Virus record (IMG/VR): IMGVR_UViG_2526164619_000007
Span: 1-13,170 of that record
Strand: one strand, 5' to 3'
Source: a virus
Taxonomy: Duplodnaviria; Heunggongvirae; Uroviricota; Caudoviricetes
Length of the DNA stretch: 13,170 bases
In this document: in pieces, positions 7,221 to 7,907 of the stretch
Layout: each line of letters begins with the position of its first letter
Position numbering within the stretch: position 1 is the stretch's first letter
The notes under the pieces: generated by a model
What the model was told of the DNA's origin: nothing
Databases searched by the model: none
The model's input: the letters and a program-made list of their open reading frames with translations, nothing else
Translations under genes and position numbers: made by a program

Positions 7221-7907
7221 ATGACCCCAATAAACATATTTATGACAGTTGCTGATTTCAAACGGCCCAAATTGGAGCTCCCAAACGGGGCAAACAAACT
7301 ACTACTGCACTCTTGCTGTGCTCCATGTTCCGGTGAGGTGATGGAGGCGCTTCAGGCCTCGGGAATCGACTACACCATCTTTTTCTACAACCCGAACATT
7401 CATCCTCAGAAAGAGTATTTAATTCGTAAGGATGAGAATATTCGCTTTGCTGAACAACACGGCGTGCCGTTTATCGATGCTGATTACGACACCGACAACT
7501 GGTTTGAACGTGCCAAAGGAATGGAATGGGAGCCTGAGAGGGGGATCCGTTGTACCATGTGTTTTGACATGCGTTTTGAGCGGACAGCGTTGTACGCTGC
7601 TGAAAATGGTTTCAGTGTGATCAGTAGTTCACTGGGCATTTCACGCTGGAAAAATATGCAGCAGGTTAACGAGTGTGGGCGGCGAGCTGTTGCGCATTAT
7701 CCGGGTATGGTGTACTGGGATTATAACTGGCGCAAGCAGGGCGGCTCGTCCCGTATGATTGAAATCAGCAAGCGCGAAAAATTCTATCAGCAGGAATATT
7801 GTGGCTGTGTGTATTCTCTGCGCGATACCAATCTACACCGCAAATCTCAGGGACGCCCTCTTATCAAAATTGGTCAACTCCACTACGGTAAAGAAGAGAA
7901 GGAGTGA
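7221..7907 (+). CDS. queH: QueH-like protein (DUF208 family, epoxyqueuosine reductase-like)
   Basis: 228-aa ORF with motifs [25 protein letters not shown] and EYCGC that I recall as DUF208/QueH hallmarks. No clear SD at either in-frame ATG (7221 or 7242). Confidence 0.65.

Follow-up and report, generated by a model that had tools for sequence, protein, structure and literature searches.

The window analysed here, the whole 13,170-nucleotide (nt) stretch of the tailed-phage record IMGVR_UViG_2526164619_000007 in IMG/VR, carries in the nin region of a lambdoid prophage an intact gene for QueH, the epoxyqueuosine reductase family. This gene is quite likely a functional queH that was captured as a cassette with a candidate promoter and that would make the maturation of queuosine (Q) independent of cobalamin (vitamin B12) in hosts already equipped with queG. 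The coding sequence (CDS) occupies positions 7242..7907 of the + strand and specifies 221 amino acids (aa) followed by a stop codon; its Pfam family (PF02677), its fold and its invariant residues identify the product, for which reductase activity is predicted. The original prediction, made before any database search, had described the locus as a QueH-like (DUF208) gene carried by a prophage as an accessory gene, and had named a profile search, a structural alignment and a survey of lambdoid prophages as ways of checking this.

The uninterrupted open reading frame (ORF) runs from 7221 to 7907 on the + strand and would encode 228 aa, in which all four motifs listed in that prediction, EYCGC among them, are found exactly as quoted. 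The profile search gives a match to PF02677 (QueH, also DUF208; InterPro IPR003828) of 221.5 bits (E = 1.1e-65) over profile positions 1–174 of 175, the gathering cut-off of the family being 23.5 bits; the lack of a profile match, one of two results that had been named as speaking against the assignment, was not seen. At the sequence level the Thermotoga maritima QueH chain of PDB entry 7lc5 is matched at E = 7.6e-22 to 7.8e-22, and 4,774 representative clusters are related to the window protein at E ≤ 1e-3. No cobalamin-binding domain was found in a Pfam scan of the protein. RefSeq has an identical 221-aa protein, known from E. coli, Shigella sonnei and S. boydii, under the name 'MULTISPECIES: epoxyqueuosine reductase QueH [Enterobacteriaceae]'.

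An AlphaFold2 model of the protein was built with an input of 19 homologues and has a predicted local distance difference test score of 79.6 and a predicted template modelling score of 0.81. The five top Foldseek matches of this model in the PDB are all T. maritima QueH (7lc5, E = 6.7e-11), after which come different members of this enzyme superfamily with E values of at least 3e-5. Superimposing the model onto 7lc5 gives a target-normalised template modelling score of 0.82 and a root mean squared deviation of 2.7 Å, and the structural alignment is thus in keeping with what had been proposed. As modelled, the protein has the QueH fold, with an adenine-nucleotide alpha-hydrolase-like core as in PDB 7LC5.

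The residues that are invariant among homologues of 32–90% identity are all kept, namely H23, C25, C26, A27, P28, N50, N52, P55, E58, Y59, R62, R103, C104, C107, S134, Q184, Y186, C187, G188 and C189 (numbering of the 221-aa protein). The cysteine set of the family is present, consisting of an N-terminal H-x-C-C-A-P-C/D motif, a central C-x-x-C and a C-terminal Y-C-G-C, as is C29. In the published QueH structure the conserved cysteines reportedly hold a [4Fe-4S] cluster and an adjacent iron, and the assignment of metals rests on that structure. The window residues C25, C26 and C29 align with C9, C10 and D13 of T. maritima, so that D13, the residue mutated in PDB 9dco, is paired with a cysteine. 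As a CC(A/G/S)PC motif occurs in 110 of 114 diverse QueH representatives, and CCAPD in just three, cysteine at this position is the norm of the family and not a deviation. A further feature of the enterobacterial QueH clade is a basic tail of about 25 aa, conserved at the C-terminus (residues 197–221, window 7829–7904), with N197, R200, G204, R205, I208, G211 and Y215 unchanged across 19 sequences; this tail may be a tRNA-binding extension. On every sequence and structure feature tested the ORF is confirmed as a genuine, intact member of the QueH family.

The gene belongs to a discrete cassette of ~737 bp (7178..7914, + strand) made up of a 64-nt leader, the ORF and 7 nt of 3′ flank. The left edge of similarity falls exactly at 7178 in 78 of 80 IMG/VR loci, and two loci from Klebsiella plasmids (L100 and L101) align to window positions 7178–7914 only, with 82.5% DNA identity. 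A cassette with the same two ends therefore recurs in lambdoid prophages and in Klebsiella plasmids of incompatibility group F (IncF). Homology of the window with the prophage loci L001 and L004 spans 7178–8372, and with the E. coli B allele the 3′ similarity continues for ~38 nt beyond the stop codon. No direct or inverted terminal repeats of 7 nt or more that would explain movement were found at the ends of the cassette. A segment of ~370 bp (L008 6688–7065, L009 and L002) separates queH from the hok region in the alleles of E. coli B, HannyBb and the Rac type, and is missing from the window (7908–7914) and from copies of the type seen in sequence type 131 (ST131); the ends of this segment suggest a deletion between short TTAT repeats.

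The survey of occurrence was carried out by megablast against 5,426 complete E. coli genomes, of which 995 (~18%) contain queH, annotated as QueH; in 985 of them the match extends over at least 80% of its length. The gene is also present in 161 IMG/VR contigs. Its prophage backbones are of Qin type (ST131 and E. coli B), Rac type and other lambdoid types, and it always stands directly after the DUF977 gene. DNA like that of the flanking prophage occurs in 4,855 E. coli genomes as against the 995 with queH, and the gene thus shows the variable presence at a sharp module boundary that is expected of a moron. As queG is found in all 5,426 genomes, queH in E. coli is always an addition and never a replacement. 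The statement that enterobacteria normally use QueG fits E. coli but is too broad, QueH being common on the chromosomes of other Enterobacterales.

Homologues of QueH were found by tblastn on 235 plasmids, 99 of them from Klebsiella with ~92% protein identity. The two Klebsiella plasmids inspected are of IncF/IncR type with tra genes and repA, one of them having queH beside an IncFII repA and the tra region, and these features rule out phage-plasmids as the vehicles. Plasmid homologues from outside the Enterobacteriaceae come from Bacillus (47), Ligilactobacillus (32), Acinetobacter (23) and Enterococcus (7), and carriage of queH by plasmids may be a wider phenomenon.

Among phages, the isolated temperate coliphage HannyBb carries queH, annotated as a 'hypothetical protein', and is the sole bona fide phage to emerge from a tblastn search of a phage collection, 24 of the 25 matches being doubtful. 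Other phage lineages were not accepted as carriers: two matches checked in detail are bacterial chromosome and the rest are unverified virome or assembly fragments. The two are 'Acinetobacter phage MD-2021a' (L003, CAKLQH020000001.1), which contains soxR, cynX, tadA and type VI secretion genes, and 'Bacteriophage sp.' (L095, MT835504.1), which contains starch synthase (glgA), argH, asd and topoisomerase (topA) genes. The window protein matches PHROG 3217 at E = 1.9e-138, a family labelled 'unknown function'. The profile of this family and some deposited CDSs begin at the internal Met41 (of the 228-aa ORF) and so lose the CCAPC motif. Mis-annotated QueH entries include L003 8109–8678 and L002 7001–7687, under the labels 'putative prophage protein' or 'hypothetical protein'. 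An earlier survey found no homologues of QueA, QueG or QueH in the viruses that it analysed (Hutinet et al., 2019; PMC6884629).

The nearest relatives of the window protein, all of them QueH with 80–90% identity to it, come from Enterobacter, Klebsiella, Citrobacter koseri, Kosakonia, E. albertii, Erwinia, Pectobacterium, Providencia, Proteus, Photorhabdus, Rahnella, Dickeya, Sodalis and others. The queH neighbourhoods inspected are ordinary chromosome, with LysR, GNAT, CsbD and EAL genes, moaA, the Providencia tmcA-purC-bamC-dapA cluster or a soxR-linked locus. DNA similarity between prophage and chromosomal queH is confined to the CDS and synonymous sites are saturated, from which it follows that the capture is old or the donor unsampled. 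By the Nei–Gojobori method the prophage alleles have ratios of non-synonymous to synonymous substitution (dN/dS) of 0.04–0.06, dS reaching 0.46 between the window and the Rac-type allele, and chromosomal orthologues compared among themselves have a ratio of 0.02. The window gene differs from that of the intact prophage L004 by seven synonymous and no non-synonymous changes, and all 79 full-length IMG/VR copies are intact, their 12 DNA alleles encoding two protein variants. Judged by these substitution patterns, queH is kept by strong purifying selection while it is carried by phages.

The start of the gene had been placed at 7221 and has to be moved. Translation almost certainly begins at 7242, the second ATG in frame, because this codon aligns with the N-termini of the chromosomal homologues and is the one chosen by the NCBI annotation pipeline PGAP, and because the ATG at 7221 is not conserved. 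The homologues begin with M-x5-(K/R)-(R/E)-(P/K)-x-L-x-LP, which aligns with the window protein from 7242, and the ATG at 7221 is replaced by ATT or CATTA in the Rac-type prophage, Klebsiella plasmid and chromosomal copies. The AT-rich leader at 7208..7241 (+ strand), which holds this non-conserved in-frame ATG, has no Shine–Dalgarno (SD) sequence: the best duplex with the anti-SD sequence at both ATGs is 0 kcal/mol, while the neighbouring genes have values of −5.6 to −11.1 kcal/mol. The lack of an evident SD sequence had been correctly noticed, but it is no oddity of the prophage. In all chromosomal queH genes examined the duplex energy is at least −1.5 kcal/mol, so that the SD-less leader is a trait of queH genes and no sign of decay. 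A riboswitch or leader RNA upstream of queH was ruled out, as an Rfam search at a permissive E-value matched only sok and the tRNAs of the window and the leader RNA folds no better than shuffled sequences (z = −0.09).

A candidate extended −10 promoter element, TGCTACACT, lies at 7199..7207 (+ strand), 34 nt upstream of the start codon. The leader of the Klebsiella plasmid copies contains an identical element 33–35 nt upstream of the ATG, and the chromosomal genes have TGCTACAAT at 33 nt (Enterobacter type) and TGCTAAAAT at 35 nt (Citrobacter/Klebsiella type). The consensus of the element is TGCTAnAnT, which would be expected by chance ~0.07 times per 80 nt. In the Rac-type leader, which is otherwise diverged, the element falls within a conserved island, TCTnATGCTACAC. 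Because it is held at a fixed 33–35 nt in the prophage, the plasmids and two chromosomal lineages, we infer that TGCTACACT represents the native sigma-70 extended −10 promoter of queH, which would have been mobilised along with the ORF.

E. coli is unable to make B12 de novo. Zallot and colleagues reportedly found in 2017 that an E. coli queG mutant regains Q when supplied with heterologous queH genes, and that Acinetobacter baylyi ADP1, which reportedly has both genes, loses Q only on deletion of both; cobalamin independence is reportedly treated in the same work as a property of the QueH family. Against this background the most likely and best-supported function of the window gene would be B12-independent maturation of queuosine. 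The queuosine pathway of E. coli is complete (PMC5372724), and a passage in PMC4646009, citing Frey 1988, gives the reduction of epoxyqueuosine (oQ) to Q by QueG as dependent on cobalamin. QueH is described as a non-orthologous, cobalamin-independent substitute for QueG (PMC5372724; PMC6461909). That the oQ-tRNA substrate is available in the host is based on the presence of queG in all of the E. coli genomes and on the published pathway.

The mechanism that we propose is as follows. QueH, as an iron-sulfur, cobalamin-independent enzyme, would reduce oQ to Q at position 34 of tRNA-Asn, tRNA-Asp, tRNA-His and tRNA-Tyr. The gene would have been captured from an enterobacterial chromosome as a cassette of ~740 bp with its own extended −10 promoter and SD-less leader. 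Today the cassette is carried by lambdoid prophages of Qin-, Rac- and lambda-like type in E. coli and Shigella, where it occupies the nin region and mostly adjoins hok/sok, and likewise by IncF plasmids of Klebsiella; its own promoter would drive transcription in lysogens and in cells with such a plasmid. Maturation of Q could then proceed through the mobile queH when cobalamin is lacking. As every E. coli host has queG, the mobile gene would provide a redundant second route, and this route would be useful without cobalamin because the host makes none de novo.

Several observations weigh against this interpretation. The Rac-type allele of the promoter element reads TGCTACACA, in which the final T is missing and the last base is A; the −35 region of the candidate promoter is poor (TTCCGA); and a generic promoter scan made no call for queH, including the element at 7199–7207. 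The gene has neither an SD sequence nor a terminator, no terminator-like site being found by a generic scan between the stop codon at 7907 and sok/hok. No model of NCBIfam release 20 matches the window protein at E ≤ 0.01. Carriage by plasmids and prophages is evidence of mobility and not of benefit, and a search of the literature found no paper on this queH allele, its activity, its expression or a phenotype. The weakest step is the fitness rationale, which needs the difference between oQ and Q to be large enough for selection to act upon. With regard to NCBIfam, PGAP calls the protein QueH despite the missing match, and the name presumably derives from another type of evidence.

The prophage around the cassette agrees with the original placement of queH in the nin region, with replication genes on one side and hok on the other. 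From the left of the window, Pfam scans identify an integrase catalytic domain at an insertion sequence (IS) of type IS1, DUF1391, a cI-like repressor, Cro, YdaT, a replication initiator, a DnaB-type helicase, DUF1627 and DUF977; then come a zinc-ribbon-like ORF, queH and sok/hok, and finally DUF1367, YbcO, DUF1133, an IS3-family element and genes for tRNA-Met, tRNA-Arg and tRNA-Thr. The DUF977 gene (6252..6659, + strand; Pfam E = 4.6e-43) is the conserved upstream neighbour of queH and occupies the same place in L001, L004, L008 and L009. It is followed by an extra module (6660..7177, + strand), which is largely particular to the window, being found in only one of the 80 IMG/VR loci. This module contains the zinc-ribbon-like ORF (6660–7073, 137 aa), with a weak, sub-threshold match to Pfam Zn_Ribbon_TF and no PADLOC match, and a GC hairpin, CCGCCC-GAAA-GGGCGG, at 7144–7159, which lacks a T-run and drew no terminator call in the scan. 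The downstream neighbour in most E. coli prophage copies, the sok antisense RNA with the mok/hok toxin locus (7965..8290, + strand), lies outside the minimal cassette; sok (7965–8140) matches Rfam RF01794 with 117 bits and hok (8078–8290) matches Pfam HOK_GEF at E = 1.4e-21. Downstream of queH, hok is absent from the Rac-type copy L009 and from the plasmids.

Much of this prophage is degraded (regions 1–1353, 3177–5323, 9465–12157 and 12857–13170). Frameshifts split the replication initiator (3177–3701 and 3689–3931) and the DnaB-type helicase (3894–4415 and 4289–5323), and of the integrase only the catalytic domain is left, abutting IS1. YbcO is split by a second IS1, the InsB ORF of which is shortened, and DUF1133 is truncated by the IS3-family (IS911-like) element, with a partial second copy of the left end of this element at 12857–13170. 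The prophage is plainly defective, yet its queH is intact. The tRNA cluster (12524–12823) consists of Met(CAT), Arg(TCT) and Thr(TGT) genes, with a partial tRNA-like match of 29.3 bits at 12769–12823. A link between queH and these genes was considered and rejected, as none of the three is a queuosine substrate. Window positions 5490–9465 are matched over at most 74% in any complete E. coli genome, and the load of IS1 and IS911-like elements suggests Shigella or an E. coli rich in IS elements.

An alternative is that queH is a phage auxiliary gene which acts mainly in the lytic cycle, where it would be expressed by pR read-through of the nin region and would convert oQ to Q so as to optimise translation of NAU and NAC codons of the phage. 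In every prophage copy queH points in the direction of the replication and nin genes and lies between these and the Q antiterminator gene, no terminator separates it from the genes upstream, and the isolated phage HannyBb carries it. The step from oQ to Q also responds to infection in Shewanella, where a 2026 preprint describes phage infection as raising Q and lowering oQ through induction of queG. Against a lytic role, the same leader and promoter-like element are found on IncF plasmids and on chromosomes, outside any phage programme; the gene is still intact although its prophage in the window has lost the ability to replicate, and the tRNA genes of the window do not encode Q substrates. We consider a mainly lytic role rather improbable, and since the leader is shared with plasmids and chromosomes a benefit to the host (conversion) is preferred to a function confined to lytic growth. 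The two roles are not mutually exclusive.

The original prediction had also allowed for a different 7-deazaguanine substrate, and such a QueH might act on an epoxy- or queuosine-like base of phage DNA or on a free nucleobase, with a role in DNA modification or anti-restriction. Phages are known to put 7-deazaguanines into their DNA (PMC6884629), and the conserved basic tail, missing in T. maritima QueH, would be compatible with a recruited enzyme. Neither a DpdA/TGT-like transglycosylase nor FolE, QueD, QueE or QueC was found in Pfam scans of the 20 principal ORFs of the window or among the recorded families of all genes of the intact prophage L004. The phages known to contain 7-deazaguanines are without QueH (PMC6884629), the window protein is 84–90% identical to housekeeping chromosomal QueH proteins, which share its tail, and it has no PADLOC match. 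This substrate is therefore very unlikely. A role in a defence system was rejected as well, as PADLOC matches neither QueH nor its unannotated neighbours. That queH is a passenger without function, a piece of a gene that hitch-hikes or decays, could be argued from the heavy degradation around it, the QueG already present in the host and the lack of an SD sequence, but is scarcely credible given a dN/dS of 0.04–0.06 over dS values of up to 0.46, intact ORFs in 79 of 79 IMG/VR copies, coverage of at least 80% of the gene in 985 of 995 E. coli copies, purely synonymous differences from L004 and a leader that is normal for chromosomal queH.

If queH does confer B12-independent maturation of Q, then roughly a fifth of E. 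coli genomes, those of the ST131 and E. coli B lineages among them, together with Shigella and many Klebsiella plasmids, would possess a mobile and probably self-expressed route to Q that needs no cobalamin. It is predicted that K-12 grown without B12 accumulates oQ, that queH-positive strains do not, and that a queG knockout is silent in the latter, which would be of relevance to work with queG mutants or with oQ/Q ratios in non-K-12 backgrounds. A bolder proposal is that prophages and plasmids override a B12-gated switch from oQ to Q in the host, so that Q status becomes a strain-variable property encoded by mobile elements. This is put forward tentatively and is on balance doubtful. Were it true, decoding of NAU and NAC codons, and the biofilm formation, virulence or phage development linked to it, would vary with mobile elements; the E. 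coli B and ST131 lineages would differ from K-12 in queuosine physiology; and QueH would be among the first tRNA anticodon-modification enzymes to act as a lysogenic- or plasmid-conversion factor. The identity of the gene is already known, since RefSeq names the protein and the family is structurally characterised. In the literature searched, neither a discrete cassette with a putative promoter common to lambdoid prophages and IncF plasmids, nor the presence of queH in ~18% of E. coli on top of a universal queG, nor its purifying selection was found described. The mobile cassette with its candidate promoter is the main addition; with the distribution over a universal queG and the purifying selection it makes a useful and testable footnote to queuosine biology and to catalogues of phage auxiliary genes, and no surprise.

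Of the known systems, the closest is the RefSeq QueH of Enterobacteriaceae, which is identical to the window protein from the ATG at 7242 and occupies the same prophage slot, between DUF977 and hokD; a close allele, WP_000150294.1, is present in ST131. Compared with these loci the window copy lies in a more degraded, IS-ridden prophage and has the extra zinc-ribbon ORF upstream. The queH of Klebsiella IncF plasmids (WP_023340966.1 on pHNGS471-3; WP_025861848.1) has ~92% protein identity, the same cassette ends and the same TGCTACACT, but its vehicle is a conjugative or mobilisable plasmid and it has no hok/sok neighbour. The chromosomal QueH proteins of Enterobacterales are of the same length (222 aa in the Enterobacter type) and their genes have the same SD-less, AT-rich leader; in the Enterobacter and Citrobacter/Klebsiella types, which are the closest lineages, the extended −10 element is shared as well, equally far from the ATG. 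They differ in their ordinary neighbourhoods, and their DNA similarity to the prophage copy ends at the ends of the CDS.

T. maritima QueH (PDB 7LC5, 7LC7 and 9DEU) shares the fold and the N-terminal CC, central CxxC and C-terminal YCGC cysteines. It is ~31% identical, has CCAPD in place of the CCAPC of the window protein and of ~96% of the family, and is without the basic C-terminal tail of ~25 aa of the enterobacterial protein. The phage 7-deazaguanine gene sets (DpdA with FolE, QueD, QueE and QueC; Hutinet et al., 2019) resemble queH in being phage-borne genes of the queuosine/7-deazaguanine family; these sets modify DNA, require DpdA and are reported without QueA, QueG or QueH (PMC6884629). 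QueG, finally, catalyses the same last step of queuosine synthesis as QueH (PMC4646009; PMC5372724) and is co-resident in every queH-positive E. coli, but it is non-homologous, requires B12 and belongs to the core genome, whereas queH is accessory and mobile.

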